IMG/VR virus record: IMGVR_UViG_3300003332_000015
Coordinates: 82,576-146,575 of that record
DNA length: 64,000 nucleotides
Source: a virus
Lineage: Duplodnaviria > Heunggongvirae > Uroviricota > Caudoviricetes
Strand: one strand, 5' to 3'
Of this stretch, positions 11,578 to 32,003 are shown one piece after another; within the stretch, counting starts at the first letter, position 1; every line of letters begins with the position of its first letter. The notes below the pieces were generated by a model. The model saw only the letters and a program-made list of their open reading frames with translations. It searched no databases and was not told the origin of the DNA. Made by a program: the position numbers and the translations under genes.

Positions 11578-11955
11578 ATGGACGAACCAAAAGTTTTACT
11601 AACATCAGCAGGAGATAGTTTTGCAATAATTAAGACATCAGCAGAAGATTTTCTTAATTCTTTTGAAACACAAGATTTAAAAGAAACTTATTTGTTTGAT
11701 AATTATTGTGCATTACTTTACTGTTATCAAAAAGATAAAGCTAGAAAATTAATGGGTGAAAAAGTTTCATATTTTGAAGAACTTGAAGAATCTGTTAATT
11801 TTTGGAGAAGTGAATTAAATAAAGCAAAAGGTAAAGTAAGTCTTTATGAAGCTGATGGTAAAGTTAAAATGATGTGGGATGATTTTGAGAAAAGGTTAAA
11901 AGGTAATGAAAGTAAAATCATTACAAAGAATTCTAGTAGTATAATTACAATTTAA
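11578..11955 (+). CDS. hypothetical protein
   Basis: ORF with RBS; ends immediately before a tRNA. Confidence 0.4.
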   Translation: MDEPKVLLTSAGDSFAIIKTSAEDFLNSFETQDLKETYLFDNYCALLYCYQKDKARKLMGEKVSYFEELEESVNFWRSELNKAKGKVSLYEADGKVKMMWDDFEKRLKGNESKIITKNSSSIITI

Positions 11956-12026
11956 GCCGTATTGGTGAAGTGGTATCATAAGAGATTTCCAATCTTCGGT
12001 CGCCAGTTCGATTCTGGCATACGGCT
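11956..12026 (+). tRNA. tRNA-Gly (UCC)
   Basis: Acceptor gccgtat/atacggc, T-arm gccag-TTCGATT-ctggc, anticodon loop uuUCCaa counted back from the T-stem; no encoded CCA. Confidence 0.75.
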
Positions 12027-12050
12027 ATATTTAAAATATAGGAGTACAAA

Positions 12051-12272
12051 ATGACAGAATGGAAAAAATATAAAAGAAGTGCAATTGCAGAAATGAGAAC
12101 ATATGAAGAGGGAGAAGTTTTAGAACATGTTTCTATTTCAGAACCTGATTTAGAGAATGGATCTCCTAAAGTAGGGGATATGATTGCACGTAATCCAAAG
12201 AATCATAATGATCAATGGCTTGTTGCAAAACAATATTTTATGGAGAATTTTGAGGACATTAAAAATGAGTAG
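12051..12272 (+). CDS. hypothetical protein
   Basis: 73-aa ORF. Confidence 0.35.
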   Translation: MTEWKKYKRSAIAEMRTYEEGEVLEHVSISEPDLENGSPKVGDMIARNPKNHNDQWLVAKQYFMENFEDIKNE

Positions 12273-12429
12273 AGCTGGTAAAAGTAAAAGTGAACATAAC
12301 AATAATGGAGAAAGAAGAAAAGGTAAAAATAATATGCCTTTAGCTCCTAGAAGTTTACGTCGAGTTGGCAAAAAGTATATGTCAGAGTGTACTGATGCAC
12401 AACTTAAAAAGGCTCAAGTAGAAAAATAA
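12265..12429 (+). CDS. small basic protein (Lys/Arg-rich)
   Basis: ATG at 12265 within the 12184..12429 ORF; highly basic. Confidence 0.3.
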   Translation: MSRAGKSKSEHNNNGERRKGKNNMPLAPRSLRRVGKKYMSECTDAQLKKAQVEK

Positions 12430-12435
12430 ATTTTA

Positions 12436-12541
12436 GCAGGTTAGTGTAAAGGTAACACGGGAGTCTCATTAATATTATATGGTGAGTAGTATTAATAAGC
12501 TCCTGCCGAAAGGCTTCAAGGTTCGAGTCCTTGGCCTGCTA
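12436..12541 (+). tRNA. type-II (long variable arm) tRNA-like gene with a ~27-nt insertion or extension in the anticodon loop
   Basis: Acceptor gcaggtt/ggcctgc, T-arm caagg-TTCGAGT-ccttg, variable-arm hairpin gccGAAAggc, anticodon stem ggagt/gctcc enclosing a 34-nt loop. Confidence 0.55.
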
Positions 12542-12797
12542 AAGACTCTTGCAGGATAGACTTAGGTTGTGATAAGCTTTTAGGAGTGTAAGCAATAAGT
12601 CCTAATTGTAACTACTGTTCAAGATCTTAATATGCACCCTCCCAGTGCTATCTATTAAGATAGTCTAGAAGAGAGGTAGGTGGATGTCCCAACAAAGTTT
12701 CAATCCACCAAAACCCGAAAGCTACGACAGGGTATAAAAAGTGTGAAAGAGATTAGCATATGACAATGATCTTTAGTAGTTTGACGTAGCACCACAT
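12542..12797 (+). other. 256-nt non-coding segment between two insertion-bearing tRNAs
   Basis: No ORF; several hairpins (ggtggat...atccacc). Contains GTAAGCAATAAGTCCTAATTG, resembling the start box of the 13.9-kb repeat family. Confidence 0.3.
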
Positions 12798-12913
12798 TGG
12801 GAAGTAGCTCAGTGGTAGAGCAGCGGAATAGTTTTACTTTTCGCTTATAGCATAAAAAGTTCCTAACACTTATTAGGATCCGCAGGTCGTTGGTTCGAAT
12901 CCAACTTTCCCAA
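12798..12913 (+). tRNA. type-I tRNA gene interrupted by a 44-nt insertion in the anticodon loop (identity undetermined)
   Basis: Canonical acceptor (tgggaag/tttccca), D-arm tagctcagtggtagagc, anticodon stem gcgga/tccgc, T-arm gttgg-TTCGAAT-ccaac. The loop is 51 nt and contains ACTTTTCGCTT-AT-AGCATAAAAAGTTCCTAA. Confidence 0.65.
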
Positions 12914-13008
12914 AGAGGTATTTATTACATGCCTGTAAAATTTGTTTAACGTAAACAAAAGTAATTATTAAGGTGAAAGTGTCACCGAACACAAGTAGCC
13001 TTTTATAT

Positions 13009-13083
13009 GCCACATTAGCTCAGTTGGTTTAGAGCGACGCACTTGTAATGCGTAGGTCCTCCGTTCGAGTCGGTGATGTGGCT
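13009..13083 (+). tRNA. tRNA-Thr (UGU)
   Basis: Perfect acceptor gccacat/atgtggc, loop cuUGUaa, T-arm ctccg-TTCGAGT-cggtg. Confidence 0.85.
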
Positions 13084-13281
13084 TTTTTAAATTACCTAAG
13101 TAAGTGTTGAGGTGTGTTATGACAAGCACTTACCCATTTATCTTGAGTACCTAAGTGGGATAATAAAGGTAATAATAATAAGAGTTATGGCTGAAGAATT
13201 ACCATTTTTGGATATTGTGTAAGAGGTTTTACCCAGCATTTTTGTTCCAAAAGATAACAATAATAGTTATCAATTCTTATT

Positions 13282-13371
13282 TGGGGGAGTAGCTCAGCGG
13301 GTAGAGTAGCTCTTGTAAGTCATGAAATTTTTGTGATGGAGTTGGTCGGTAGTTCAAATCTATCCTTCCCC
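13282..13371 (+). tRNA. type-I tRNA gene with a ~19-nt insertion in the anticodon loop
   Basis: Acceptor gggggag/cttcccc, D-arm tagctcagcgggtagagt, T-arm ggtag-TTCAAAT-ctatc. Loop ttgtaag...ttgtgat carries canonical heptamers at both ends (GUA at 5', GUG at 3'). Confidence 0.6.
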
Positions 13372-13373
13372 AC

Positions 13374-13445
13374 TGTGGATGTAGCTCAGCGGTAGAGCGG
13401 TGGATTGTGATTCCACATGTCGGGAGTTCAAATCTCCTCATTCAC
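13374..13445 (+). tRNA. tRNA-His (GUG) with extra 5' G(-1)
   Basis: 8-bp acceptor including G-1:C73, loop uuGUGau, T-arm gggag-TTCAAAT-ctcct. Confidence 0.85.
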
Positions 13446-13597
13446 CTTAACAGCGTTCGCCTACACTGTATAAATAAGAAAGGGTCGGGGGGAGCGATAC
13501 GACGAGCGTATGCGAGAGATATTTATAAAGTATGTTCACTTGAAGGGATAACCTTAACAAAGAAAACTTTATCTTTAAATCGTAAAAGGAATATAAA

Positions 13598-13840
13598 ATG
13601 AATTTAGGTAAAAAAGGAACAGATATAATAACTGGTTTTACTGGAACAGTTGTTGGTTATGTTGAATATTTAACAGGTTGTAACCAATATTTAATTGTTC
13701 CTGAATGTCGTAAGGGTGAAACTAATAAAAAACCAAGTGGAGAATGGATAGACGATAATAGAATTAAAATTGAAAAAGGAAAAACAATTGATCTATTTAG
13801 AACTAACTCTACTGGATCAGACATTTCACCACATACATAA
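13598..13840 (+). CDS. hypothetical protein
   Basis: 80-aa ORF with RBS. Confidence 0.4.
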   Translation: MNLGKKGTDIITGFTGTVVGYVEYLTGCNQYLIVPECRKGETNKKPSGEWIDDNRIKIEKGKTIDLFRTNSTGSDISPHT

Positions 13841-13849
13841 AAATAATTT

Positions 13850-13898
13850 ATTTTTTATTTAACAAACTGTAATAATTTATTATTATATTAATGTAAGT
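13850..13898 (+). promoter_or_regulatory. phage promoter motif (full consensus TTATTATTATATTAATGTAAGT)
   Basis: Its +1 region runs directly into repeat unit 1 of the array. Confidence 0.55.
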
Positions 13899-14306
13899 AA
13901 GCAAAGGAAGTTCCTAATAATATTCAATTGGTGGAAAAACTTACTTCCCGCTTACATAATTTATTTAGTGTAAGGAAGCATAGAAGGTTCCTAAACAAAG
14001 AATTTTAATCTAAACTACCTTCCGCTTCGCTTATTATATTGTTTATTAATTGGGCATAAAGGGTTCCTATAAAAAAAATACGGAAAACATTTGATTTACC
14101 CTTCGCCCTTATTTTGTTTATTAAGGCATTGAAAGTTCCTAAATAACCTGACTTAAAATCAGGCTCAGCCGAAAGGCTAAGCTATTTACTTTCCGCCTTT
14201 ATTATATTATATAAAATGGAGCATAGGAAGTTCCTATTAAACAATCCAATCGGGAAGTAACCCTAGTGGTGAAAACCCCGATTATCAGTGTATTACTTCC
14301 CGTTTC
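13897..14306 (+). repeat. tandem array of five structured-RNA-like units
   Basis: Units at ~13897-13955, 13974-14030, 14052-14108, 14123-14199 and 14218-14306. Each has 5' stemA-N3/4-stemB-GTTCCTA, a variable core, then 3' stemB'-(C)G-stemA'. Stems covary between units (gtaagc/gcttac, gaagc/gcttc, gggc/gccc, aaggc/gcctt, ggagc/gtttc with G·U pairs). AT-rich promoter-like linkers separate units. Confidence 0.7.
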
Positions 14307-14326
14307 TAATTTTTAAGGAGATGAAA

Positions 14327-16258
14327 ATGATATCTACATTAAGACTATTCAATGGTGTAATTGTTGACGACAAAACAACTAAAGGTCGAAATGATTATGT
14401 TGAAACTGAATTTCAAAAAGAAACTATGAAGAAAGGGTATATTATAGATGAAAAAATCTATAGTACTATGTCTTTCACCGATATTGATCGACTTCATAAT
14501 GTTATTGAAACAGAAGTATTAACTTCTTATGAAAATTGGAATAATGCTTTTTATAAATCTTGGAGTAAATTAGAAACACTTTCTGATCTTGAATTACGTG
14601 TTGATCAGTTACTACATTACTTTACTACATACGGTTTTGAAGCTCTTGGAATAAATAATTCTTTTGTTTATATACCAGAAGGTACAATTGATCTTCCTGA
14701 ACTTGATAAAGATCTTTCTTTCCTTTATATAAAAGCATTAAGCTGGGAAGAAGTAAAAGGTAGACTTGACAGTCTTATTGGTTCCGGTGTTGCTATGTCT
14801 GAACAAACTCAGTTAGACATTATGGAAGTTTATGAAGAGATTGGTTTTGATGCTTCTATTTTAGAAGTTTGTAAAAATAAAGAATTAAAAACTCGTTTTT
14901 ATGAGAAGTATGACTTAGTACCAAAAAATGCAACAGAGTTTTTAAGATATGTAATTATGAAGTCAACAGGAAATTCTCTTGTAATAAAAGATAAGGCAAC
15001 AATCGAGTCTATCAAAATTGGTGGTGGTAAAAAAGAAGTATTAGACACTTTTACTAAGTATGAAAACAGCTATGGTCTAACAGAACTTGCTTCCTCTTTT
15101 TATAGATATAAACCTTTATGGTTAGCTTTTAAAAGTTACACAGGTTTAAGTCCTATGATAAATAAAATTAGAAGATTAGCAGTTAATTACCATAAACCAA
15201 TGAAGGCTGATTTACTTAATGATTTAACAGGAATGTTAAATAGAAAAGAAAATATAAGTTATCCTGAATTAAATAGGGCTCTTGACAAAGCAAATAGTTT
15301 TAGAAAAATAAGATTACTATATGCTTTACAAAATAGAAAGAGTAAAAATACTGAAGTTGTTTATAGAATAAGAAACGGTAAGTCTTATGCAACAAATAGA
15401 GTTATAAATTCTAATCTTTTAGGTGTTGCTACTGTACGTAAGATTGTATACTCTTCTTTAGTTAAAGACTTAAAAGAAAAAGTGGAGAATAAACTTGTTT
15501 ATTTATCACCTAATATTAATTATGCTCTTCCTGCAACTGAAAAACAATTTGTAGGTAATTTTCCTACAGGAACATCTGTAGCAATAGATAAAGATAAAGA
15601 TGTAATCATGGGAGTACACTGGACTAATCAACAACAGAAAAGAGTTGATCTTGATTTATCACTTATTGATATTTCAGGTAACAAGTATGGTTGGGATGGA
15701 TCTTATAGAAATAGTAATAGATCTGTAATGTTTTCAGGAGATTTTACAAATGCACCATTACCAAAAGGAGCTACAGAATTATATTACTTTAAAGGTATAC
15801 AGGATGGAAGTTACTTAGTTAATATCAATTATTATAATAGTTTATATAGTGGTGATGGAGAAGATGTTCCTTTTGATATTGTAGTAGGTGGAAGTGTTGC
15901 TAATAAATCAAATAGAGGATTTATGATTAGTCCTAATGAAATAGTAGCACAAGTTCCTTCATTTATGGGGAACGACCAACAAGTAATTGGTCTTGTTATA
16001 ATTAAAGAAGGACAAGGAACCTTTTACTTTGCTGAAGCAAAAGTTGGTGTAGGACGTACTTCAAGAGGAACTGATACTGCAATGATACATCAAAAGTTCT
16101 TAGTTAATACATTGGAAGATACTATTGACTTTGAAAAGTTATTACTGGATGCAGGAGCTCTTACTACACGAGGTAAAGAGGATAATCCTCAGGATATAGA
16201 TTTTGATTTTTCAGTTGAGTCTATATCAAAAGACTCTATTTTAGAACTTTTTTATTAA
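14327..16258 (+). CDS. large hypothetical protein (~643 aa)
   Basis: Long ORF; ATG at 14327 six nt after AAGGAG. The track ORF begins upstream at a GTG that overlaps repeat unit 5. Confidence 0.6.
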   Translation: MISTLRLFNGVIVDDKTTKGRNDYVETEFQKETMKKGYIIDEKIYSTMSFTDIDRLHNVIETEVLTSYENWNNAFYKSWSKLETLSDLELRVDQLLHYFTTYGFEALGINNSFVYIPEGTIDLPELDKDLSFLYIKALSWEEVKGRLDSLIGSGVAMSEQTQLDIMEVYEEIGFDASILEVCKNKELKTRFYEKYDLVPKNATEFLRYVIMKSTGNSLVIKDKATIESIKIGGGKKEVLDTFTKYENSYGLTELASSFYRYKPLWLAFKSYTGLSPMINKIRRLAVNYHKPMKADLLNDLTGMLNRKENISYPELNRALDKANSFRKIRLLYALQNRKSKNTEVVYRIRNGKSYATNRVINSNLLGVATVRKIVYSSLVKDLKEKVENKLVYLSPNINYALPATEKQFVGNFPTGTSVAIDKDKDVIMGVHWTNQQQKRVDLDLSLIDISGNKYGWDGSYRNSNRSVMFSGDFTNAPLPKGATELYYFKGIQDGSYLVNINYYNSLYSGDGEDVPFDIVVGGSVANKSNRGFMISPNEIVAQVPSFMGNDQQVIGLVIIKEGQGTFYFAEAKVGVGRTSRGTDTAMIHQKFLVNTLEDTIDFEKLLLDAGALTTRGKEDNPQDIDFDFSVESISKDSILELFY

Positions 16259-16315
16259 ATAATAAAGCGTCCTGGGTAAGACGCCTCAACCCCTTTAAAC
16301 TGCCTGCGGAGGACA

Positions 16316-16426
16316 AATGACTGAGAAAGAAATGTTTGAAAAATCCTTTGAAAGACCAAGTAACTATTTTATATTAAATAGTAGGAAACAGTGGGAAATA
16401 GATTCTAAATTAGGAATACTTGATTA
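16316..16426 (+). CDS. possible 36-aa micro-ORF
   Basis: ATG preceded by GGAGG in a GC-richer intergenic region; speculative. Confidence 0.15.
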
Positions 16427-16496
16427 GGTAGGTGAAAATTTAAACAATGCAGAAAAACAAAGATTTAGAGACTATTATGATTTTCCTGATACTTCT

Positions 16497-16612
16497 TATT
16501 TAATGAGATAATAGTTTACATTAAATACGATAATGTAAATAATAGTTTACATTACGGGCCGGTAACCAAGTCCGGTAAGACATCACTCTTTACATAAACA
16601 GTTACTAATACA
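16497..16612 (+). promoter_or_regulatory. candidate operator/leader: three copies of TTTACAT(T/A)A plus ccgg hairpin, then AAACAGTTACTAATACAATATG at the start codon
   Basis: tagtttacatta / taatgtaaataatagtttacatta / ctctttacataa; the final 22-mer recurs at 50649-50672 fused to another ATG. Confidence 0.4.
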
Positions 16613-16614
16613 AT

Positions 16615-17274
16615 ATGAGTATAAAAATTAAAGAAGAATGGAAGAATCAAGAAGGATTATATATTTGTCCTGTATGTCAAAAAAGATATACTAAAAATGG
16701 AATAAGTACACACATTTGGAGAATGCACGGTGAAGGTAACAATCATAAACCTTTTAAAAATAAAATAACATGGAATAAAGGTTTAACTAAAGAAACCGAT
16801 GATCGTGTTAAACAACAAGGTATTAATTTTAGTAAAGCTTTTAAAGAAGGGAAAATAAAATCTAGAAAAGGAACAAAATTATCTAAAGAAATTTGTAAAA
16901 AAATTTCAATAGGTATGCAAAAAGTAGTTAGAGATAATCCAGAATCTTATAATTCTAAGAATGTATGTGGTAGAGTAAAAAATATAGATTATAATGGATT
17001 TACTCTTAAAGGTAATTGGGAACTTTTAGTTGCTAAGTTTTTAGATTCGAAAGGGATTAAATGGACTAATATAGTTGAACCTTTTACTTATATTTGGAAA
17101 GGTAGTAAACATTTATATTTTCCTGATTTTTATCTTTTAGAAAGAGATGAATATATTGAAGTTAAAGGATATGAAAGGCCTAAAGATGTAGAAAAATGGA
17201 AGGTAGTAAGTAATTTAAGAATTATTAAACTTAAAGAAATTAATAACATTAAAAACAATTTATATTGTATATAA
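16615..17274 (+). CDS. PD-(D/E)xK-nuclease-like protein with N-terminal C2H2-type zinc finger (possible homing endonuclease)
   Basis: CPVCQ...HIWRMH zinc finger; FPDFYLLERDEYIEVKG fits a PD-(D/E)xK motif. Confidence 0.45.
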   Translation: MSIKIKEEWKNQEGLYICPVCQKRYTKNGISTHIWRMHGEGNNHKPFKNKITWNKGLTKETDDRVKQQGINFSKAFKEGKIKSRKGTKLSKEICKKISIGMQKVVRDNPESYNSKNVCGRVKNIDYNGFTLKGNWELLVAKFLDSKGIKWTNIVEPFTYIWKGSKHLYFPDFYLLERDEYIEVKGYERPKDVEKWKVVSNLRIIKLKEINNIKNNLYCI

Positions 17275-17346
17275 GGGTTTATAACTCAGGGGTAGAGTGG
17301 GTTTCTCATAAAAACTTGGTCGGTAGTTCAAATCTATCTAAACCCA
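17275..17346 (+). tRNA. tRNA-Met/Ile2 (CAU), elongator-like
   Basis: Acceptor gggttta/taaaccc, loop cuCAUaa, T-arm ggtag-TTCAAAT-ctatc. Confidence 0.85.
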
Positions 17347-17587
17347 TTTTTAAAACCTTTTAAATAAGGTGTACTAACATAATAAAGGATTATAAAAGAA
17401 ATAATGAATATTTTGAAAAGTCAAAAACAGTTTAATTTATCTCAACTCTTAGCCATCGTTTCACCTGTATGGTTTAATGATTATAGAGTAATGAGGAGAT
17501 TGTATTGACAGTGTGATTCTACATGTTAATTTTGATATACAATCCCTTATAATTTATAAAGGATTTTTTTTATGATTATTTATCATA

Positions 17588-17631
17588 AAATTTAAAAAGT
17601 TTTAAAAAATTATTATTATATAAGTGTAAGG
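17588..17631 (+). promoter_or_regulatory. phage promoter motif upstream of the tRNA cluster
   Basis: tttaaaaagttttaaaaaattattattatataagtgtaagg. Confidence 0.55.
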
Positions 17632-17659
17632 AGTATATTTTGTTTAGTGACTTTAGAAT

Positions 17660-17733
17660 GTGAAGGTAGCGTAACAGGTAACGCGCTGGACTGAAAATCC
17701 AGTAATTAGTGAGTTCAAGTCTCACCCTTCACA
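17660..17733 (+). tRNA. tRNA-Phe (GAA)
   Basis: Acceptor gtgaagg/ccttcac, loop cuGAAaa. Confidence 0.85.
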
Positions 17734-17740
17734 ATAACAT

Positions 17741-17820
17741 GCGATAGGCGCTGTCAGGGAACACAAGGAGTCTGTAAAACTCTTGCTTCGGCTTGGAAGG
17801 TTCGAGTCCTTCATGTCGCA
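17741..17820 (+). tRNA. tRNA-Tyr (GUA), type II
   Basis: Loop cuGUAaa, variable-arm hairpin gcTTCGgc, T-arm gaagg-TTCGAGT-ccttc. Confidence 0.8.
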
Positions 17821-17833
17821 TATATTAAATAAT

Positions 17834-17906
17834 GTGAGTGTACGCAAGCGGCTATGCGACTTCGTTTGGGGCGAAGGAGTCGGGTGTTCGAATCACCCCA
17901 CTCGCA
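17834..17906 (+). tRNA. tRNA-Pro (UGG)
   Basis: Acceptor gtgagtg/cactcgc, stem cttcg/cgaag, loop uuUGGgg. Confidence 0.8.
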
Positions 17907-17910
17907 TCTT

Positions 17911-17992
17911 GCCAGGGTGCTGAAATTGGTAGACAATCGGGTTTTAGAAACCCGAGCCTTCGGGTGTAAGGGTTCGAGTCCCTTTCCTGGTA
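17911..17992 (+). tRNA. tRNA-Leu (UAG), type II
   Basis: D-arm tgaaattggtagac, loop uuUAGaa, long variable arm, T-arm aaggg-TTCGAGT-ccctt. Confidence 0.85.
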
Positions 17993-18077
17993 CTACAAAA
18001 ATTTTAAAAGGAGTAATAGTATGAAGAATATAATTTATGGTCTTTAAGTAATTTAATTTATTAAGGAGACATATTTT

Positions 18078-18668
18078 ATGTATTACATTCACAATTATAT
18101 TGAAGACACTTGGAGATCTACAAAAACTTGGTGGGATTTAGTAGAGTATTTTTATAGACCTAAAGTAGATTATTTTGGATTTAAATATTTCTTTGATGAT
18201 GGTTTTGACAATATTGCTCATAGCAAGAATGATACAAAGCTTAGTTATGTTCCAATATCTGAAGGTTCATATGCTACGAAAGCTGTTTATGTACCAAGAT
18301 CGGAAATCATTTATAATGATGATATGGTAATTGTAAATATTGCTGACATTAAAAGGGCTTTAAAAGTTTTCAAACCAAGAGAAGAATCTTATCCTTATAA
18401 AAGTACATGGATGAGAAGAGGTAGATACTTCCAGTTTGAATTTCGTGTAGACCCTGTTCCTTATGTTGGAACTGGAAGAGGAGGAGGAAGTAGTTACAGA
18501 AAACCTAAAAGGAATAAAAACTACTTTGCTAAATTACAAGAGTTTGAAGAGTTTGATTCAAGAGTTAGAAAAGGTATTTTTGATGTCAGTCTTTGGTGGG
18601 ATGACTTTCCATATAGAGGTACTGTAAAATCTTGGAAGAATAAAAAGAAAAAGAAACAATGGATGTAA
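18078..18668 (+). CDS. hypothetical protein (RGG/basic C-terminal region)
   Basis: 196-aa ORF with RBS GGAG. Confidence 0.5.
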   Translation: MYYIHNYIEDTWRSTKTWWDLVEYFYRPKVDYFGFKYFFDDGFDNIAHSKNDTKLSYVPISEGSYATKAVYVPRSEIIYNDDMVIVNIADIKRALKVFKPREESYPYKSTWMRRGRYFQFEFRVDPVPYVGTGRGGGSSYRKPKRNKNYFAKLQEFEEFDSRVRKGIFDVSLWWDDFPYRGTVKSWKNKKKKKQWM

Positions 18669-18679
18669 ATTCATTACGA

Positions 18680-18752
18680 TCCTCTATAGCTCAATTGGTA
18701 GAGCGTCCGGCTGTTAACCGGAAGGTTGGTGGTTCAAGTCCATCTAGGGGAG
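18680..18752 (+). tRNA. tRNA-Asn (GUU)
   Basis: Loop cuGUUaa, T-arm ggtgg-TTCAAGT-ccatc. Confidence 0.85.
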
Positions 18753-18764
18753 CTAGGAGTTATT

Positions 18765-18920
18765 ATGAAATGTAATGGTAACATTCATGACAGAATTGCT
18801 AAAGAACTTGAAAGAATAAAAAATATGGATATAAAAGAACATCCTATGTCTCCTCCAAAAGATGAGATTTATTATGTGAAATTAGTTGAAAAAGAAAAAG
18901 ATTTAAACTTGCCTCTTTAG
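18765..18920 (+). CDS. small hypothetical protein
   Basis: ATG after AGGAG, downstream of tRNA-Asn. Confidence 0.3.
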   Translation: MKCNGNIHDRIAKELERIKNMDIKEHPMSPPKDEIYYVKLVEKEKDLNLPL

Positions 18921-18983
18921 TACAGTGGATTAGTGCATAGGATTTCGGATCCTAGAACACCGGTTCGAGTCCGGTAGGAGGTT
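18911..18983 (+). tRNA. tRNA-Arg (UCG)
   Basis: Stem tagga/tccta, loop uuUCGga, T-arm accgg-TTCGAGT-ccggt. Confidence 0.75.
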
Positions 18984-18985
18984 TA

Positions 18986-19171
18986 ATGAAAGAAGGAGAT
19001 TTTGTAAAAGTTGTTCACTGTAAAAGATCAAAGTATATGAACAGTGAATTTTTGAAATGGGTAGACGGACATAAAGATATAAAGTATTATGTTCTTTCAG
19101 CAGTAGGTAATAGAGTAAGACTTTCAAAAGTTGGTTTCCTTATTACAACTGAATTTTTAGAAAAAGTTTAA
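18986..19171 (+). CDS. small hypothetical protein
   Basis: 61-aa ORF between tRNAs. Confidence 0.3.
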   Translation: MKEGDFVKVVHCKRSKYMNSEFLKWVDGHKDIKYYVLSAVGNRVRLSKVGFLITTEFLEKV

Positions 19172-19176
19172 ATTAA

Positions 19177-19249
19177 GGGCCATTAGCTCAGTTGGTAGAG
19201 CGCCGGTTTTGCAAATCGGATGTCGAGAGTTCGAGCCTCTCATGTGTCC
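19177..19249 (+). tRNA. tRNA-Ala (UGC)-like gene with a defective acceptor stem (possible pseudogene)
   Basis: Canonical D-arm, stem ccggt/atcgg, loop uuUGCaa, T-arm gagag-TTCGAGC-ctctc. Acceptor gggccat vs atgtgtc pairs at only 5 of 7 positions. Confidence 0.5.
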
Positions 19250-19325
19250 ATCGGGAATAGTCCCTTACAGTAAATCATATACTTAACCGGTCAATGGATA
19301 TATGGTGGATAGTTGGTGGCGATAC

Positions 19326-19378
19326 TGGACAGAGATAAGGCCTTATCTCTTAATGGTGGTTCGATTCCATCTTTCTGA
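19326..19378 (+). ncRNA. tRNA-like minihelix element (acceptor-like stem + GGCC-loop hairpin + canonical T-arm); not a full tRNA
   Basis: cagaga...tttctg stem, hairpin agagataaGGCCttatctct, T-arm ggtgg-TTCGATT-ccatc. Homologous to the 21485-21633 element. Confidence 0.4.
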
Positions 19379-19442
19379 ATTTGAGATTCTTAACTGTTCT
19401 TCCTCTTGTAAGAAACAGTCAGTGAGGTGAAATGCCAAGCCA

Positions 19443-19513
19443 GGCCTTATAGTATAATGGTAGTGCGGGAGATTGTCTATCTTCAAGTCAGGGTTCGACT
19501 CCCTGTAGGGTCG
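19443..19513 (+). tRNA. tRNA-Asp (GUC)
   Basis: Acceptor ggcctta/tagggtc, loop uuGUCua, T-arm caggg-TTCGACT-ccctg. Confidence 0.8.
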
Positions 19514-19637
19514 CTAAGGATAATTAAAAATGGAGAATTGGTTTCAAGACATAGAATTTTTCCTAGATGAGAAAGGGGATATTCAACCTAAAAAAAATAT
19601 TAAAAAGGATACAATTGATATTTTGGAGTTGTATAAG

Positions 19638-19770
19638 TATGAAAGACAAATTTGTTTGCAAGAAATGCAAAAATAAATATCTTTGGGTATTAAAAGCAGA
19701 AGAACATCTTTGTGTTTATTGTAAAGGAGAATATCCTGATGGAACAGAGTGTAAAGGTGGTAAAAAATAA
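19638..19770 (+). CDS. small zinc-ribbon protein
   Basis: CKKCKNK...CVYCKGE motif. Confidence 0.3.
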
Positions 19771-19773
19771 CAT

Positions 19774-19846
19774 GCGGGTATAGTTCAACTGGATAGAGCA
19801 TAGGCCTTCTAAGCCTACAATAGGGGTTCGAGTCCTCTTACCCGTA
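19774..19846 (+). tRNA. tRNA-Arg (UCU)
   Basis: Stem taggc/gccta, loop cuUCUaa. Confidence 0.85.
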
Positions 19847-19980
19847 ATAAGTTCTTGTATCAATTTAATAACGTTTAAGGGATTGGTTGCTAGATATTCG
19901 TGACATGTTCACTGAGGCATTAGTGTCCTAGACGATATCATGGAAGTTGGCTCGAAAGGCTTTCTGAAAGAACTTTTTAT

Positions 19981-20052
19981 AGCTTCTTGGTGTAACGGTT
20001 AGCACAGTGGGATTTGGCCCCGCCAGTGAGGGTTCGAATCCTTCAGGAGCTG
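19981..20052 (+). tRNA. tRNA-Gln (UUG)
   Basis: Stem gtggg/cccgc, loop auUUGgc (G37 unusual), T-arm gaggg-TTCGAAT-ccttc. Confidence 0.65.
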
Positions 20053-20066
20053 ATAGGAGATAAAAA

Positions 20067-20252
20067 ATGAGTATTAAAGAACAAAAATTAGTTGATATTT
20101 GTTTTCAAATTGGTTTAGTAATACATAATCAATCGGATTACTTTAAAGATTTATCTTCAGATGAAACAGCTGATTGGATTGCTAACCAATTAAGATGGTG
20201 TGGTTTTCCTACAGAACCAGTAGGTTGTTCACATGGAGTTTTGATTAAATAA
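20067..20252 (+). CDS. small hypothetical protein
   Basis: 61-aa ORF with RBS. Confidence 0.3.
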   Translation: MSIKEQKLVDICFQIGLVIHNQSDYFKDLSSDETADWIANQLRWCGFPTEPVGCSHGVLIK

Positions 20253-20258
20253 AATTTA

Positions 20259-20332
20259 GAACCATTAGCTCAACCTGGTAGAGCATCCGGCTTTTAACCG
20301 GAATGTTAAAGGTTCAAATCCTTTATGGTTCA
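20259..20332 (+). tRNA. tRNA-Lys (UUU)
   Basis: Perfect acceptor gaaccat/atggttc, loop cuUUUaa. Confidence 0.9.
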
Positions 20333-20344
20333 TAATATATGATT

Positions 20345-20431
20345 GGAGGGGCAAGCCAATAGGTGGTGGCCGCAGTTTTGAAAACTGTTAGGAGTGAAAG
20401 TCTCGTGTGGGTTCGATTCCCACTCCCTCCG
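20345..20431 (+). tRNA. tRNA-Ser (UGA), type II
   Basis: Acceptor ggagggg/tccctcc, loop uuUGAaa, long variable arm. Confidence 0.8.
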
Positions 20432-20436
20432 TACTT

Positions 20437-20520
20437 GGAAGGGTGCCCGAATGGTAAGGGAGCAGATTGCTAATCTGTGGCCGAGTAATCGGTCTGGAGG
20501 TTCGAGTCCTCTCCCTTCCG
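20437..20520 (+). tRNA. tRNA-Ser (GCU), type II
   Basis: Acceptor ggaaggg/cccttcc, loop uuGCUaa, long variable arm. Confidence 0.8.
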
Positions 20521-20529
20521 TAAAAGTTT

Positions 20530-20580
20530 TTAAAATTTATTTAAAAAAACTTAAATTTTTATTATTATATTAATGTAAGT
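20530..20580 (+). promoter_or_regulatory. phage promoter motif
   Basis: ttaaaaaaacttaaatttttattattatattaatgtaagt. Confidence 0.55.
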
Positions 20581-20592
20581 AAAAGAAATTAA

Positions 20593-20904
20593 ATGGAGAA
20601 TAAAATGGATGTTCCAAAAGAATTAAAAGCGGAAGTACTTGCTGAACTATATAATAATAGTCAACCATTGGGTATGGGTTTTTTACATTTTACACCTGCA
20701 CCAATGTCAGTAGACCAAGCTGATGAATTATTAATACATGTTGATCATAATGGAGATGTTTATTTTGATTATCTTCAAGGACGTGTAATGAAAATAAATT
20801 TTCGTTCTGATACTGATGAAGTTGAAACGTGGTTATATAATAGAGATAACGGTGATAATGCAGCTGAAAGATGTCTTGAAACTGTATTAGACCGTCACAA
20901 ATAA
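20593..20904 (+). CDS. hypothetical protein
   Basis: ORF after a promoter motif. Confidence 0.5.
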   Translation: MENKMDVPKELKAEVLAELYNNSQPLGMGFLHFTPAPMSVDQADELLIHVDHNGDVYFDYLQGRVMKINFRSDTDEVETWLYNRDNGDNAAERCLETVLDRHK

Positions 20905-20918
20905 AAGCATAGAAGGAG

Positions 20919-21218
20919 ATGATTATTATGCTGATTAAGTATGTGAGAAATGGAGAGGGTAACAGAGTGGGAGTCGTAGTGGCTACTGGTGCTTCTAAGG
21001 TTGGTTGGAGTCTTTGTAATAAGAAAGATAAATGGGACCGAAAGAAAGGACTTATGATAGCTAGTAATCGAGCAGAAAGAGGATTTCATTCTGTAATTCC
21101 AACAATGTATGTTAAGGAACATGATTGTGAAACTGGAAAAGTTATTCAGAGAGAAGTAATGGTAAGTGCTTTCAACCACATGGAAGAAAGAGCTTTAAGT
21201 TATTACAAAGAAGTATAA
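20919..21218 (+). CDS. hypothetical protein
   Basis: ORF with RBS GGAG. Confidence 0.5.
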   Translation: MIIMLIKYVRNGEGNRVGVVVATGASKVGWSLCNKKDKWDRKKGLMIASNRAERGFHSVIPTMYVKEHDCETGKVIQREVMVSAFNHMEERALSYYKEV

Positions 21219-21237
21219 TACCCCAAAAATTAAAAAG

Positions 21238-21270
21238 CGGGACAGGATAAAAACTGTCTCGATTTTATTT
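21238..21270 (+). terminator. rho-independent terminator
   Basis: cgggacag-gataaaaa-ctgtctcg stem followed by attttattt. Confidence 0.5.
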
Positions 21271-21273
21271 CAT

Positions 21274-21347
21274 GCTTCTTTAACTCAGTTGGTTAGAGTG
21301 TCGGTTTTACATACCGGAAGTCCTTGGTTCAAATCCAAGAAGAAGTA
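21274..21347 (+). tRNA. tRNA-Val (UAC)
   Basis: Loop uuUACau, T-arm cttgg-TTCAAAT-ccaag. Confidence 0.85.
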
Positions 21348-21356
21348 TATTATTTT

Positions 21357-21477
21357 GGCCGAATGGCGGAACTGGTAGACGCGCCGGACTTAGAGCAGCT
21401 TCGGATTGGAAACAATGGAGCTCCTCTAAAATCCGGTTCCTGTAATGGGAGTGAGGGTTCGAGTCCCTCTTCGGCTA
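21357..21477 (+). tRNA. type-II tRNA-Leu-like gene with a ~36-nt insertion in the anticodon loop
   Basis: Acceptor ggccgaa/ttcggct, Leu-type D-arm ggaactggtagac, stem ccgga/tccgg around a 43-nt loop beginning cuUAGag (UAG at canonical position, A37), long variable arm, T-arm gaggg-TTCGAGT-ccctc. Confidence 0.6.
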
Positions 21478-21484
21478 ATATTAT

Positions 21485-21633
21485 GGCAGAATAAGCCTTA
21501 TTTTTGAGATGTTATAACGAAAAGTACTTAGTAGTTATAGTGTGTTAATTATACTGTACTGATATTGGAAAGATGATTTATTTGTTGCAACATTTAGAAA
21601 GTCTTAATGGAGGTTCGATTCCTTCTTCTGTCC
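21485..21633 (+). ncRNA. tRNA-like element: 7-bp acceptor-like stem + canonical T-arm with ~100-nt internal insertion
   Basis: ggcagaa...ttctgtc pairing; T-arm ggagg-TTCGATT-ccttc; flanks taagcctta and cttaatgg collinear with the 19326-19378 element. Confidence 0.4.
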
Positions 21634-21660
21634 CTATAAATTTTAAAAGGAGAAAAAAAA

Positions 21661-21933
21661 ATGAATGATGATATGGGTAAGGAACCTGTTAAAAGTACAA
21701 TGACAAGTAATATATTAAATCATATGTATAATCTAATGGAGATGTCTTTAGATTTAGAGTTAGTAACTAATCAAGTAACTAGAACATTTTTTGGTGATCA
21801 ACCTCCATCAGATGAAAAAGATAGTGTAAGAGTTGAAAATAATGAGCCTGGTTTTGAAACTTCTATAAATAGAGCAATAGATGTTTTATACTATAGAATA
21901 CAGGAAGCAATTCTTTTACTAAAAAAATTATAA
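21661..21933 (+). CDS. hypothetical protein
   Basis: 90-aa ORF with strong RBS. Confidence 0.45.
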   Translation: MNDDMGKEPVKSTMTSNILNHMYNLMEMSLDLELVTNQVTRTFFGDQPPSDEKDSVRVENNEPGFETSINRAIDVLYYRIQEAILLLKKL

Positions 21934-21958
21934 ATATGTTACTAATACAGTAACTATT

Positions 21959-22032
21959 TTGGTTCTATAGTCTAATCGGTTAGGACACCAGGTTTTCATC
22001 CTGGCAACCGTGGGTTCGAATCCCCGTAGAAC
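21959..22032 (+). tRNA. tRNA-Glu (UUC)
   Basis: Acceptor ggttcta/tagaact, stem ccagg/cctgg, loop uuUUCau; T-stem has one bulge. Confidence 0.75.
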
Positions 22033-22156
22033 TATTTTAAATTTACACCAAAAAGGAGTCCTATTATGAGAAAATAGATACATCCACCTTAACCTTTATA
22101 TTGTCATATTAAAAGTTGAAAACTAATAATTACATACAATATACAAGGGAAAAATA

Positions 22157-22471
22157 ATGAAATATATAAAGAATGATTTAACAGAATTAAGAAAGAAAAT
22201 TAAGGAAACGAGAGAAATAAGTAAGACAGCAAAAGATATGTGGGATAGATCATCCGCACAATGTAAGTTACATAGTTTAAAACAACAATACAGAAATAAA
22301 CATGTATTGTATTGTTTATGTAAAGGTCGTACTTATAAAGAAATTGAAGCTAAAGTACGTGAAGATAATGAATTACATATTCCAAGTTTAAAAAGATTAT
22401 GTATAGGATATGAAACATTATCTTTTAATGAAATTAGTGAGGAACAGTTAGAAGGATTATTAAAATGGTAA
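22157..22471 (+). CDS. hypothetical protein
   Basis: 104-aa ORF. Confidence 0.45.
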   Translation: MKYIKNDLTELRKKIKETREISKTAKDMWDRSSAQCKLHSLKQQYRNKHVLYCLCKGRTYKEIEAKVREDNELHIPSLKRLCIGYETLSFNEISEEQLEGLLKW

Positions 22472-22833
22472 AGCAAGTAATAATTGTTAGAACTGATTTG
22501 GATATGCCTCTTGGAAGAATTTCGGCACAAGCAGCACATGCTTCAATTGCAGTTTTTCTTGATATGGGAAAATGGAACAAAGATAGTTTTACATTAAATA
22601 ATGTTCCAGAGGATATTCAGTATTGGATGAAAGAATCTTTTACTAAAGTAATATTAAAAGTTCATAGTGAAGAAGAATTAAATGCTTTAGCAGAATATGC
22701 TGAATTAACAAACTTACCTTACGCAATGATATCTGACGATATTAAAAAGAAAATGCACAAGATGGCTTTAGCCATTGGTCCTGCAACAAACGATAAATTA
22801 GATGTTATTACAAAAGGTTTAAAACTTTTATGA
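22465..22833 (+). CDS. peptidyl-tRNA hydrolase, PTH2 family
   Basis: N-terminal VIIVRTDLDMPLGRISAQAAHA matches the PTH2 signature. Confidence 0.65.
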   Translation: MVKQVIIVRTDLDMPLGRISAQAAHASIAVFLDMGKWNKDSFTLNNVPEDIQYWMKESFTKVILKVHSEEELNALAEYAELTNLPYAMISDDIKKKMHKMALAIGPATNDKLDVITKGLKLL

Positions 22834-22881
22834 TTTAGAAATTACATAGTGGTGAGGGTACCAAGTAACTTCACCACACTT

Positions 22882-22954
22882 GCCCTTATCGTATAATGGT
22901 TAGTACAACACCCTCTAAAAGTGTTTGGTTTGGGTTCGACTCCCAATAAGCGGC
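22882..22954 (+). tRNA. tRNA-like gene with anticodon CUA (putative amber suppressor); acceptor stem imperfect
   Basis: D-arm gtataatggttagtac, stem acacc/agtgt (C31·A39), loop cuCUAaa, T-arm ttggg-TTCGACT-cccaa. Acceptor gccctta vs taagcgg pairs at 5 of 7. Confidence 0.45.
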
Positions 22955-22958
22955 ATTT

Positions 22959-23031
22959 GGGAGAGTAACTCAGTGGTTAGAGTTCGGAGCTGATATCTCC
23001 GCGGTCGATGGTTCGACTCCATCTTTTCCCA
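22959..23031 (+). tRNA. tRNA-Ile (GAU)
   Basis: Stem cggag/ctccg, loop cuGAUau, T-arm gatgg-TTCGACT-ccatc. Confidence 0.85.
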
Positions 23032-23120
23032 TATTTATGTAGGTGTCGAAAGACTTTAAGGATACGCAGAAGGGCAACGTTTGTTCACCCTTTACCTATT
23101 ATTAAATAAGGAGACTTAAA

Positions 23121-23687
23121 ATGAATGAAGAAATAGAAGTTAGTGAATTATTATCTATTATTGGTAATTGGTTAAAAAGAAATAAGAAAATTGTTTTAAT
23201 TACCTTTGGTATAATACTTAGTGTATTAGCAATTGTAATGTTTTTTGTAAAAGTTATTGAACTACCCATTAAAGAAGGAAGAGTAGTTGAAAGAACATAT
23301 GATGAAGAACATGTTGCTTATTTAGAAGATAGAAAATCTGTAAAACGTACAGAAGTTTATACCACAACTAATTCGAAAGGTAATATAGTTGTAAGGATTA
23401 GACAAGTACATGACTATTATATGTATTGTGTTGATAAGCATTTAGATAGAGAAGACTATATTGTAAGAATAGAACAACCATCTAAGAAACATGAAGGAAA
23501 AATTCTTGGACGTTATATATATGTTTCTAAAGAAATATATGATAAGTTAGAAATTAAAGATTATTTTGTAGCAGATTTTAAAGAAAGAAAAGAATCTACT
23601 AGAGATAAAAATAATAGTATAAGTCAAGTTACTGATTGGTCACGATTACATGTTAATATGGAACCTTGGCTTACTAAACAGTATTAA
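23121..23687 (+). CDS. membrane-anchored hypothetical protein
   Basis: N-terminal hydrophobic helix after a short charged segment. Confidence 0.5.
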   Translation: MNEEIEVSELLSIIGNWLKRNKKIVLITFGIILSVLAIVMFFVKVIELPIKEGRVVERTYDEEHVAYLEDRKSVKRTEVYTTTNSKGNIVVRIRQVHDYYMYCVDKHLDREDYIVRIEQPSKKHEGKILGRYIYVSKEIYDKLEIKDYFVADFKERKESTRDKNNSISQVTDWSRLHVNMEPWLTKQY

Positions 23688-23692
23688 AAAAT

Positions 23693-23767
23693 GTCCTCTT
23701 AGCCAAGTGGTCAAAGGCGGGGGATTGCAAATCCCCTAGTTCCTCAGTTCGAATCTGAGAGAGGACT
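23693..23767 (+). tRNA. tRNA-Cys (GCA)
   Basis: Perfect acceptor gtcctct/agaggac, loop uuGCAaa. Confidence 0.85.
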
Positions 23768-31020: not shown

Positions 31021-31053
31021 AACCGTCTTTCTTTATGTTAGACGGTTTTTTTA
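31021..31053 (+). terminator. rho-independent terminator after the transporter gene
   Basis: aaccgtct...agacggtt stem followed by T7. Confidence 0.7.
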
Positions 31054-31059
31054 TGATTT

Positions 31060-31113
31060 TTTTTAAATTCTTTTTAAAAAGTTTTAAAAAAATATTATTA
31101 TATAAGTGTAAGG
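31060..31113 (+). promoter_or_regulatory. phage promoter motif upstream of pnk
   Basis: tttaaaaagttttaaaaaaatattattatataagtgtaagg. Confidence 0.55.
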
Positions 31114-31121
31114 AGATTGGA

Positions 31122-32003
31122 ATGCAAACAGTTTATATAATGAAAGGACTTCCTGCATCAGGTAAGTCAACAAAAGCAAAACAGATGGTAGAAATGTCTA
31201 GTGGTAATCTTAAAAGAATTAATAAAGATGATTTAAGAGCTATGATGGATACTAAGTGGAGTAGAGAAAGAGAGAAACTTGTAATTGCTACAAGAGATTC
31301 TATTATTAGAACTTGGCTTTTTGAAGGGTTTGATGTAGTTGTTGATGATACAAATCTGGCAAAAAAACATATTACAAGAATTGAATCAATTGTGAACGAA
31401 TATAATAAAAAGTATAACAAAGAAGCAATAACAAAAATTATTGATTTCTCTTATACTGTAAGTGTTCACGAGTGTTTACGTCGAGATCGTAAAAGAGAAA
31501 ATCCTGTTGGTGATGATACTATATGGAGAATGTATAGTCAATTTATTGAATGGACAAAACCTGAAGTAAAAAAAGATAATAGTAAAGAAGATGTTTATCT
31601 TTGTGACTTAGATGGAACTATTGCTTTACATAATGGTAGAAATCCTTACTTATATGAAGAGTGTATACATGACTTACCTAATATGCCGGTTGTTAATGTT
31701 ATAAGGGCACTTATTAAATCTGATTTTAAAGTTGTATTTGTTACAGCAAGAGAAGATATTGGTAACTCAAAATCATTAACAATACAGTGGATTGAAGAAT
31801 ATATTGGTTTAAAAGATCCTATAGTTATTACAAGGGAATTAGGTGATAACAGAAATGATGGTATTACTAAAAGAGAAATGTATAACAAATATATTTTTCC
31901 TAAGTATAATGTTATTGGTGTATTTGATGATCGTAAAAGAGTTATTGATATGTGGCGTGATATGGACATCATGGTTTTTGATGTTGCAGGTCATACGTTT
32001 TAA
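31122..32003 (+). CDS. pnk: polynucleotide 5'-kinase/3'-phosphatase (T4 Pnk-like)
   Basis: N-terminal P-loop GLPASGKST plus C-terminal HAD motif LCDLDGTIA; start at ATG 31122 after AGGAG. Confidence 0.85.
   Translation: MQTVYIMKGLPASGKSTKAKQMVEMSSGNLKRINKDDLRAMMDTKWSREREKLVIATRDSIIRTWLFEGFDVVVDDTNLAKKHITRIESIVNEYNKKYNKEAITKIIDFSYTVSVHECLRRDRKRENPVGDDTIWRMYSQFIEWTKPEVKKDNSKEDVYLCDLDGTIALHNGRNPYLYEECIHDLPNMPVVNVIRALIKSDFKVVFVTAREDIGNSKSLTIQWIEEYIGLKDPIVITRELGDNRNDGITKREMYNKYIFPKYNVIGVFDDRKRVIDMWRDMDIMVFDVAGHTF

Follow-up and report, generated by a model that had tools for sequence, protein, structure and literature searches.

Within a window of 64,000 nucleotides (64 kb) from a virus of the Caudoviricetes (IMG/VR record IMGVR_UViG_3300003332_000015, positions 82,576 to 146,575), we analyzed two short tRNA-like elements, hereafter E1 and E2, which lie in a tRNA array. 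On sequence grounds E1 and E2 are homologous and tRNA-derived, and E2 corresponds to E1 with a single 100-nt AU-rich insertion at the 3' side of what was presumably the anticodon loop. The best reading is that they are paralogues which descend, through internal rearrangement, from a single tRNA gene of the Arg(UCU)/Trp type. Lacking a D arm and a usable anticodon loop, neither can decode. We put at about even the chance that E2, and less surely E1, has been kept as a handle for RNase P and 3'-end processing in a polycistronic transcript of tRNAs and open reading frames (ORFs).

E1 reads ACAGAGA-TAAGGCCTTATCTCTTAAT-GGTGG-TTCGATT-CCATC-TTTCTGA-A and E2 reads GGCAGAA-TAAGCCTTAT-(100 nt)-TCTTAAT-GGAGG-TTCGATT-CCTTC-TTCTGTC-C, neither encoding a CCA end; their parts are located in Table 1. 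The 3' blocks (19348-19373 and 21602-21627) are identical at 24 of 26 positions and are followed in both by TT[T]CTG (blastn E = 1.4e-4 within the window), their local alignment scoring 43 against 13.7 +/- 2.2 for shuffled sequences. The 5' blocks (CAGA[G]ATAAG[G]CCTTAT) align with two one-base gaps and a score of 21, against 10.1 +/- 1.8 after shuffling. For each block none of 500 shuffles was as good, and the homology ends at the element boundaries. Between the two blocks there is one base in E1 (c19347) against exactly 100 nt in E2. This segment has a G+C content of 26%, an ordinary background composition for a window at 28.9%, and no second copy of it was found within the window, which rules out a repeated or mobile element there. 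The sequence of E2 is identical in the independent Logan assembly L001, with 0 mismatches across 11,383 nt.

An earlier note on this DNA, made from the sequence alone, had described a homologous pair with the same ends, one member carrying an insertion of about 100 nt at one place, and a perfect hairpin in the other, and all three descriptions hold, the hairpin being a 20-nt palindrome in E1. The sequence given there for E1 was also right, but its boundaries have to be corrected: the strand cagaga occupies 19330-19335 rather than starting at 19326, the full element adds an A.A end pair and a discriminator and spans 19329-19379, and the 'gg' after the linker had been counted twice, tctcttaat running directly into ggtgg. 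We also scanned both strands of the 64 kb, outside the called tRNAs, for a 5-bp stem around a T-loop-like heptamer. Only 2 of the 4 sites thus found carry the GGTTCGATTCC consensus; these orphan T arms are E1 and E2, both on the + strand and within the tRNA array. Small ORFs overlapping E1 (19302-19430) and E2 (21573-21668) were discounted, having no ribosome-binding site.

The parentage of the elements was addressed by scanning a relaxed version of the shared 3' motif, CTTAATGGNGGTTCGATTCCNYC, against the JGI metagenomes. This yielded 97 loci, 94 of which fall within called tRNAs: 56 Arg(UCU), 32 Trp(CCA), 3 Asn, 1 Thr, 1 Gly and 1 Arg(CCU). None of the remaining 3 resembles E1 or E2. In the matched tRNAs the motif spans the end of the anticodon stem, a TAAT or TTAAT variable loop and the T arm, and the segment of E1 made of TCTCT, TAAT and the T arm is a near base-for-base match to a Trp tRNA from L012. 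By this comparison the 3' block is of the variable-loop and T-arm type typical of Arg(UCU) and Trp tRNAs. E1 and E2 can be seen to retain what would be the 3' two-thirds of their parent, namely the 3' strand of the anticodon stem, the TAAT variable loop, a consensus T arm and the 3' acceptor strand. The palindromic hairpin of E1 (AGAGA...TCTCT) most likely comes from the anticodon arm, whose loop would have turned into the self-complementary TAAGGCCTTA. Because the tRNA set of the window (11955-23767) covers all amino acids but Trp, a lost tRNA-Trp would be a reasonable parent. The purine-rich 5' strand (CAGAGA in E1, GGCAGAA in E2) can pair with either of two strands, the acceptor 3' strand or the one that formerly made up the 3' side of the anticodon stem. 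The D arm is likely to have been lost through a deletion at short repeats (microhomology), which would have joined the acceptor 5' strand to the 5' strand of the anticodon stem.

ARAGORN made no call for E1 or E2 with its standard, intron or mitochondrial settings. The Rfam tRNA model (RF00005) scored E1 at 18.4 bits against a gathering score of 29, in an end-to-end alignment that deletes the D and anticodon arms, in keeping with the earlier note, which had reported no D or anticodon arm. The same model did not match E2. The best Rfam match of E2 was tRNA-Sec, with 23 bits against a gathering score of 47 and through an inner, poorer 5' strand, and no Rfam family reached threshold for either element. 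Both have the tRNA-type T arm, with a GTTCRANYC loop, a 5-bp stem and the acceptor 3' strand directly after it. Neither has a D arm or a 7-nt anticodon loop with U33 and a purine at 37, the best loop of E1, CCUUAUC, having C33 and U37.

Several other identities were tried and rejected. For an intron-containing tRNA in E2, 2,989 single-segment excisions gave 0 ARAGORN calls, and excisions across E1 and its upstream region gave only nonsense calls with 4-nt anticodons. The segment upstream of E1 that the earlier note had called 5'-half-like gave no tRNA signal, either with Rfam or in the excision scan. Nor did the analysis yield support for the note's suggestions of priming, of recognition mimicry or of half-tRNAs. 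Likewise, a 128-nt version of E1 starting from TCGGGAA (19251, 2 nt after the tRNA-Ala), which forms 7/7 pairs with the 3' strand, was rejected because such matches are expected by chance and because the homology with E2 sets ACAGAGA as the equivalent strand. A transfer-messenger RNA (tmRNA) was rejected as well: aragorn -m reported 0 genes, the window contains no RF00023 match, and the elements have no G3:U70, tag ORF or pseudoknots. The YrlA model (RF02553) had no match in the window, and no TROVE-domain protein was found among about 40 ORFs scanned, a part of those in the window.

The two elements differ in their predicted folds. In the minimum-energy fold of E2, a 7-bp acceptor stem lies flush with the T arm; the fold further contains a TAAG/CTTA stem of 4 bp and an AU-rich hairpin that is long and imperfect. 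All seven acceptor pairs are standard, one of them being a G.U (G2.U71, next to C3-G70), and this stem is present in about 66% of the predicted ensemble. For E1, an 8-bp palindromic hairpin together with the T hairpin was predicted at -12.4 kcal/mol, against -8.7 kcal/mol for the constrained acceptor form. The acceptor stem accounts for about 0.3% of the E1 ensemble because the palindromic hairpin occupies the same 5' strand. The 'minihelix' of the earlier note, an acceptor stem stacked on a T arm, is therefore retained for E2, with 7+5 bp in its favoured fold. In E1 it exists on paper as 6+5 bp but the element prefers another fold, so that by structure prediction the term is apt for E2 only. 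The description of E2 as an insertion-bearing family member is likewise fair, because four tRNAs of the same genome carry insertions of 19-44 nt in their anticodon loops.

Comparison of the two copies gives some signs of selection on structure. The only two differences in the 26-nt 3' block make up a single T-stem pair, 51:63, which is U-A in E1 and A-U in E2; two random substitutions would hit both sides of one pair in this way with a probability of about 0.006. The G.U at 50:64 of the T stem is kept in both. The acceptor strands differ between the copies by one extra base per strand, yet in both the helix abuts TAAG on its 5' side and the T stem on its 3' side, and the acceptor stem of E2 is longer by two pairs beyond the region common with E1. 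The compensated pair and the flush helices are suggestive of a structural constraint acting after duplication.

We searched for homologues of the elements in several collections, following the earlier note's proposal to look in related genomes for the minihelix with or without its insert. Blastn of the region 19100-21700 against GenBank phages returned ordinary tRNA matches only. The shared 3' block was also scanned against IMG/VR as an exact pattern, with no match, and the JGI metagenome scan described above contained no counterpart of either element. With the 90-aa and 99-aa proteins of the neighbouring genes as queries, only the source phage and three tiny distant contigs were recovered, none with a homologue of E1 or E2; the 90-aa ORF, which starts 28 nt downstream of E2, had no homologue whatever. 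The closest relatives were found through their PTH2 peptidyl-tRNA hydrolase, at 60-73% protein identity (about 70% for the nearest). They keep the order PTH2, amber-suppressor tRNA(CUA), tRNA(CAU), their arrays being otherwise differently arranged, and no E-like element was found in L005, L006, L009, L010, L108 and L111-L114 as far as the contigs reach. The proposed search thus ended without a homologue.

The relatives do contain arm-less elements of their own. L005, a related phage of 201 kb, has at 14857-14898, 5 nt after its Rnl2 gene, a perfect 41-nt acceptor/T-arm minihelix, AGAGGTG-AAGGAATATT-GCTGG-TTCGACT-CCAGC-CACCTCT. It is followed by a spacer motif, TTTAGACATTAACAGCA..., that also follows real tRNAs of the same phage at about 6080, 8964 and 9258. 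A conserved 59-nt element is common to L006 (3498-3556) and L108 (2394-2452). It lacks an anticodon arm but has the acceptor stem, a GG-containing D arm and the T arm, plus a linker of 9 nt, and a T-stem pair covaries between the copies (U-A vs C-G). L108 also has three tRNA-Arg-like genes missed by ARAGORN (3812-3885, 4104-4177 and 5420-5495; anticodons TCT, CCT and TCG), in which a miniature D arm (e.g. CTTA-AGGA-TAAG) stands directly against the acceptor stem. Truncated 'top-half' derivatives of tRNAs are therefore recurrent in this phage group, and at least one of them looks maintained. One further candidate, a tandem element of L108 (AGATAAG...TTAT plus a T arm), was rejected as a relative of E1 and E2: 65 of 1,000 shuffles were equal to it, and the motif is common in AT-rich DNA.

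What goes beyond tRNA descent and the inability to decode we infer from the setting and the predicted folds. E1 and E2 would be transcribed on the + strand within a polycistronic run of tRNAs and small ORFs. The predicted 7+5-bp top half of E2 is the module recognised by RNase P, by the 3'-end processing enzymes and by the CCA-adding enzyme, so E2 would probably be excised as a tRNA-like RNA of about 150 nt, separating tRNA-Val and tRNA-Leu from the downstream 90-aa ORF. E1 would be the more decayed copy, folding mainly as two hairpins. If selected at all, the elements would most plausibly act as processing handles, or punctuation marks, and not as adaptors. Several results weigh against this reading. 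No conservation could be demonstrated with any of the searches above, the collections holding no close relative. The acceptor fold of E1 is thermodynamically disfavoured. The whole fold of E2 has z = -1.65 against shuffles and is not significant. By chance alone it is not unusual for 250 nt to contain a 7/7 complement of the 3' strand, and upstream of E2 there are two. The compensatory argument was made post hoc and concerns one pair in two sequences. The dual pairing of the 5' strand fits simple decay, because a microhomology deletion would leave exactly such a strand, and the damaged tRNA-Ala upstream of E1 suggests a decaying stretch of the array.

The main alternative is that E1 and E2 are pure debris, non-functional pieces of pseudogenes produced as a fast-rearranging array underwent deletion, duplication and insertion, with pairings inherited rather than maintained. 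We hold this to be somewhat under an even chance, and nearly as likely as the processing-handle reading. It would account for the lack of detectable conservation anywhere searched, for the unfavourable acceptor fold of E1, for the acceptor mismatches of the adjacent tRNA-Ala and for the background composition of the E2 insert. Truncated tRNA pieces are moreover common in the arrays of the relatives (e.g. L005 5749-5799), and the endonuclease genes in or near the array (Table 1) could drive rearrangement. Debris explains less readily that the sole two differences of the 3' block form a compensated pair, that two further pairs lengthen the E2 acceptor stem beyond the part shared with E1, that the helix is flush with the T stem in both copies, and that two copies have been retained in a compact genome. 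Were E1 and E2 debris, they would still provide a record of how such an array decays, by microhomology deletion of an arm, duplication of the product and insertion of a segment.

The remaining explanations are less probable. It is doubtful that E1 and E2 yield a stable tRNA-like RNA acting in trans in the manner of T4 rnaC (species 1 RNA), for instance as a decoy or substrate for host toxins or for phage enzymes working on the acceptor end. The size and position of E2 do match rnaC, in which a T arm is likewise combined with an acceptor-like stem of imperfect pairing, the window encodes Pnkp, an Rnl1-type ligase, a second RNA ligase, HAD_SAK_2, Band_7 and PTH2 proteins, and arm-less tRNA-like elements recur in the relatives, one of them with covariation. 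But a covariance model of rnaC, built from an alignment of five Tevenvirinae and searched against the array, scored E2 at 9.0 bits (E = 0.39) and E1 at 5.6 bits (E = 3.4), with ordinary tRNAs reaching 14.9 bits. Neither element has similarity to rnaC outside the T loop, so membership of that family was rejected, and no Ro/TROVE-type partner was present among the ORFs scanned. The analogy moreover predicts nothing, because the function of rnaC is itself unknown (PMC3014915, PMC9697503, PMC2330249).

We consider it very unlikely that E2 is a D-arm-less adaptor with anticodon UAU (CUUAU...AG), in which the 100 nt form an intervening sequence after position 36, removed like the four shorter anticodon-loop insertions, E1 being the uninterrupted paralogue. 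The insertion does lie on the 3' side of a 4-5-bp stem (TAAG[C]/[T]CTTA), a position equivalent to that of the insertion in the CAT tRNA (12434-12542), which the relatives of that tRNA lack, and removal of 21502-21599 yields the loop CUUAUAG with C32, U33 and A37; ligation enzymes are encoded, and a relative encodes a tRNA-Ile(UAU). However, the product would have no D arm, no residues 8-9 and merely 2 nt between the TAAG/CTTA stem and the T stem, its stem would be 4 bp plus a C.U mismatch, and E1 would present C33 and U37. ARAGORN rejected every single excision of E2, the relative's tRNA-Ile(UAU) is similar only in the T loop, and no splicing endonuclease was identified. Least credible of all is a DNA-level site, the (quasi-)palindrome AGA(G)ATAAG(G)CCTTAT(C)T(C)T being bound or cleaved by a protein and its tRNA-like flank being incidental. 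The palindrome is perfect over 20 nt in E1, and E2 keeps 7/8 arm positions with a paired one-base deletion in both arms. Yet there are two copies only in 64 kb, ATAAG-N0-4-TTAT is common in this AT-rich DNA, quasi-palindromes are readily made by hairpin-templated mutation of a former anticodon arm, and the conserved T arm would be left unexplained.

There is also a slim chance that E1, E2, the 41-nt minihelix of L005, the 59-nt element of L006 and L108 and the mini-D-arm tRNA-Arg genes of L108 represent an undescribed, purpose-made class of phage 'top-half tRNAs', with the 100 nt of E2 and the four anticodon-loop insertions being intervening sequences removed by proteins. Members of such a class, made by phages rich in RNA-repair genes, could serve as decoys or substrates, either for host defence enzymes acting on the acceptor end or for enzymes of the phage itself that repair tRNAs or add CCA. 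If true, the removed insertions would point to cut-and-ligate tRNA splicing, by Pnkp and an RNA ligase, in a bacteriophage.

The genes around the elements (Table 1) belong to a distant, AT-rich T4-like phage, as indicated by the gene content of the window: rIIA, rIIB, a ribonucleotide reductase, a gp46-like SbcC, a DnaB-type helicase, RecA and an RNA-repair set. Pnkp, the two RNA ligases, HAD_SAK_2, Band_7 and PTH2 make up an extensive equipment for RNA repair and translation rescue. The tRNA array, with interspersed small ORFs, extends from 11.9 to 23.8 kb and lies entirely on the + strand. ARAGORN called 23 tRNAs in the window with standard settings and 26 with introns allowed, 4 of the latter having the anticodon-loop insertions. 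These form hairpins and measure 27 nt (12434-12542), 44 nt (12797-12914), 19 nt (13283-13373) and 36 nt (21356-21478), too short for group I introns. Counterparts of the CAT tRNA (12434-12542) in L108, L010 and L009 keep an uninterrupted CTCATAA loop, and the insertion in that tRNA is therefore lineage-specific. The tRNA-Leu(UAA) next to E2 matches the Rfam tRNA model with 47 bits and has a fold z = -3.05. The tRNA-Ala(UGC) upstream of E1, rightly described as defective in the earlier note, is called in spite of the mismatches G3.G70 and C4.U69 in its acceptor stem. It therefore lacks the alanine identity pair G3:U70, and may be inactive or differently charged.

Table 1. Location of E1, E2 and their parts, and of neighbouring features, in the window.
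Feature	Coordinates	Strand	Remarks
E1, 51-nt truncated tRNA-like element	19329-19379	+	Acceptor-like strand, palindromic hairpin, 4-nt variable-loop remnant, T arm, 3' acceptor strand, discriminator
E1 palindrome, agagataaGGCCttatctct = AGAGATAAGGCCTTATCTCT	19331-19350	+	Perfect 20 nt, matching its own reverse complement; dominant predicted RNA hairpin of E1
E1 T arm, GGTGG-TTCGATT-CCATC	19355-19371	+	ggtgg 19355-19359, ttcgatt 19360-19366, ccatc 19367-19371
E1 3' acceptor-like strand, TTTCTGA	19372-19378	+	6/7 positions pair with ACAGAGA 19329-19335 (tttctg 19372-19377)
E2, 149-nt tRNA-like element	21485-21633	+	Begins 7 nt after tRNA-Leu(UAA)
E2 5' block, GGCAGAATAAGCCTTAT	21485-21501	+	Homologous to E1 19329-19346; acceptor 5' strand ggcagaa 21485-21491
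E2 100-nt segment	21502-21601	+	AU-rich; predicted long imperfect hairpin
E2 3' block	21602-21633	+	TCTTAAT; T arm GGAGG-TTCGATT-CCTTC 21609-21625; TTCTGTC 21626-21632; discriminator C 21633
tRNA-Ala(UGC)	19177-19249	+	Upstream of E1; called despite acceptor mismatches
tRNA-Leu(UAA)	21356-21478	+	36-nt hairpin insertion in anticodon loop; adjoins E2 upstream; ARAGORN intron mode
Endonuclease gene	16615-17274		In or near the array
PTH2 peptidyl-tRNA hydrolase	22465-22833		
Pnkp	31035-32003		
Rnl1-type ligase	33548-34681		
NUMOD3 protein (endonuclease)	36382-37182		
Band_7 protein	39507-40736		
HAD_SAK_2 'Swiss Army Knife' domain protein	42376-42924		
Second RNA ligase, PHA02142 OB fold	44133-45269		

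Other parts of the array were also inspected. An amber-suppressor-type tRNA with anticodon CTA lies just 3' of PTH2 (22882-22954), and the same adjacency was found in every relative examined whose contig reaches downstream of PTH2. A 656-aa ORF within the array (14288-16258) had no Pfam, PHROG or PDB match and a weak NCBIfam match to the MXAN_6230/SCO0854 RING-domain family over residues 424-497. The gaps at 12543-12796, 13084-13282 and 19848-19979 are non-coding, measure 130-250 nt and received no tRNA or Rfam call; they could leave room for further small RNAs. The scan for promoter-like sites was uninformative (63 found vs 58 expected), and the sole good terminator lies at 21238-21261, upstream of tRNA-Val. 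In the relatives' tRNA arrays, near-identical copies of a strong promoter-like sequence, TTGACAAAAAAAGAATAAT(A/T)TGGTATAAT, occur throughout (L005 at about 5830, 7375, 8660, 10935 and 15850; L006 at 3565; L108 at 4185); reading of the window at 11900-13500 and 18600-22200 revealed no copy, its remainder not having been searched.

Other RNA features were observed in the same relatives. L005 encodes a phage tmRNA at 15484-15771 (Rfam RF00023, 72.9 bits), near genes for RtcB, a CCA-adding enzyme and Rnl2. In L006 a weak match to class A bacterial RNase P RNA at 2917-3164 (37 bits, E = 1.5e-8) stays below the gathering score, and the ORF that comes after it has a LAGLIDADG-like motif; the match may represent a fragment of a phage RNase P RNA or an interrupted gene. 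In L108 a 112-nt tandem duplication (2700-2925) stands just upstream of tRNA-Asn, each copy having a promoter-like TTGTTA-N17-TATACT and then about 60 nt of tRNA-like remnant that includes a T arm.

Should E1 and E2 prove to be maintained, they would provide a second, independent case of the riddle posed by T4 species 1 RNA, which is to our knowledge a tRNA-like RNA kept in a phage cluster for a reason that has stayed unknown for 50 years. The lineage would then combine arm-less tRNA-like genes, anticodon-loop insertions and a full RNA-repair toolkit, and would offer natural variants with which to ask what a lone tRNA top half does during infection.

Among known systems, T4 rnaC is the closest in architecture. 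It is an RNA of 139 nt, processed from the transcript of the T4 tRNA cluster, where it comes directly after tRNA-Arg and rnaD. E2 is of comparable size (149 nt vs about 140 nt, within a range of about 120-150 nt) and lies likewise on the same strand and directly 3' of a tRNA in the cluster of a T4-type phage. In both, the strand after a consensus T arm forms an imperfect acceptor-like stem with the 5' end, and long hairpins fill the interior in place of the D and anticodon arms. T4 rnaC also has CTTAAT before its T arm, which is probably a coincidence. A 12/13 match between E1 GAGATAAGGCCTT (19333-19345) and GAGATATGGCCTT of the rnaC of T4 (L004) was set aside as probably due to chance, being only partly conserved in rnaC homologues and missing in E2. 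Two conserved features of rnaC, a 5' TCGGTTCGAGGA block and the presence of two U.U mismatches in the terminal stem, are absent in E1 and E2; rnaC is also a stable RNA, E1 and E2 being known as sequences. The resemblance is thus one of architecture and context, not of membership.

Two further comparisons concern RNAs in which an acceptor/T-arm module is joined to a long helix replacing the anticodon arm, as in tmRNA and YrlA. YrlA carries its free ends on the long helix and not on the acceptor stem, which would be the reverse of E2. Some large phages have been reported with a Ro/TROVE protein, and cellular Ro works with a tRNA-like RNA partner (PMC7824862).

At the level of modules, E2 can be compared with the acceptor-TΨC minihelix, the tRNA 'top half' that is a minimal substrate of RNase P, of the CCA-adding enzyme and of several synthetases. 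In the predicted fold of E2 the 7-bp acceptor stem likewise runs on directly into the T arm, with its 5-bp stem and consensus loop. The minihelix is however a biochemical concept and not a gene family, and E2 inserts a further arm, about 110 nt long, between its two helices. With phage tRNA pseudogenes, finally, E1 and E2 share tRNA descent, a location in an array, missing arms and damaged or odd neighbours (the tRNA-Ala here; the elements of L005, L006 and L108), and they differ from these in being two paralogues with a common derived junction and a compensated change in the T stem.

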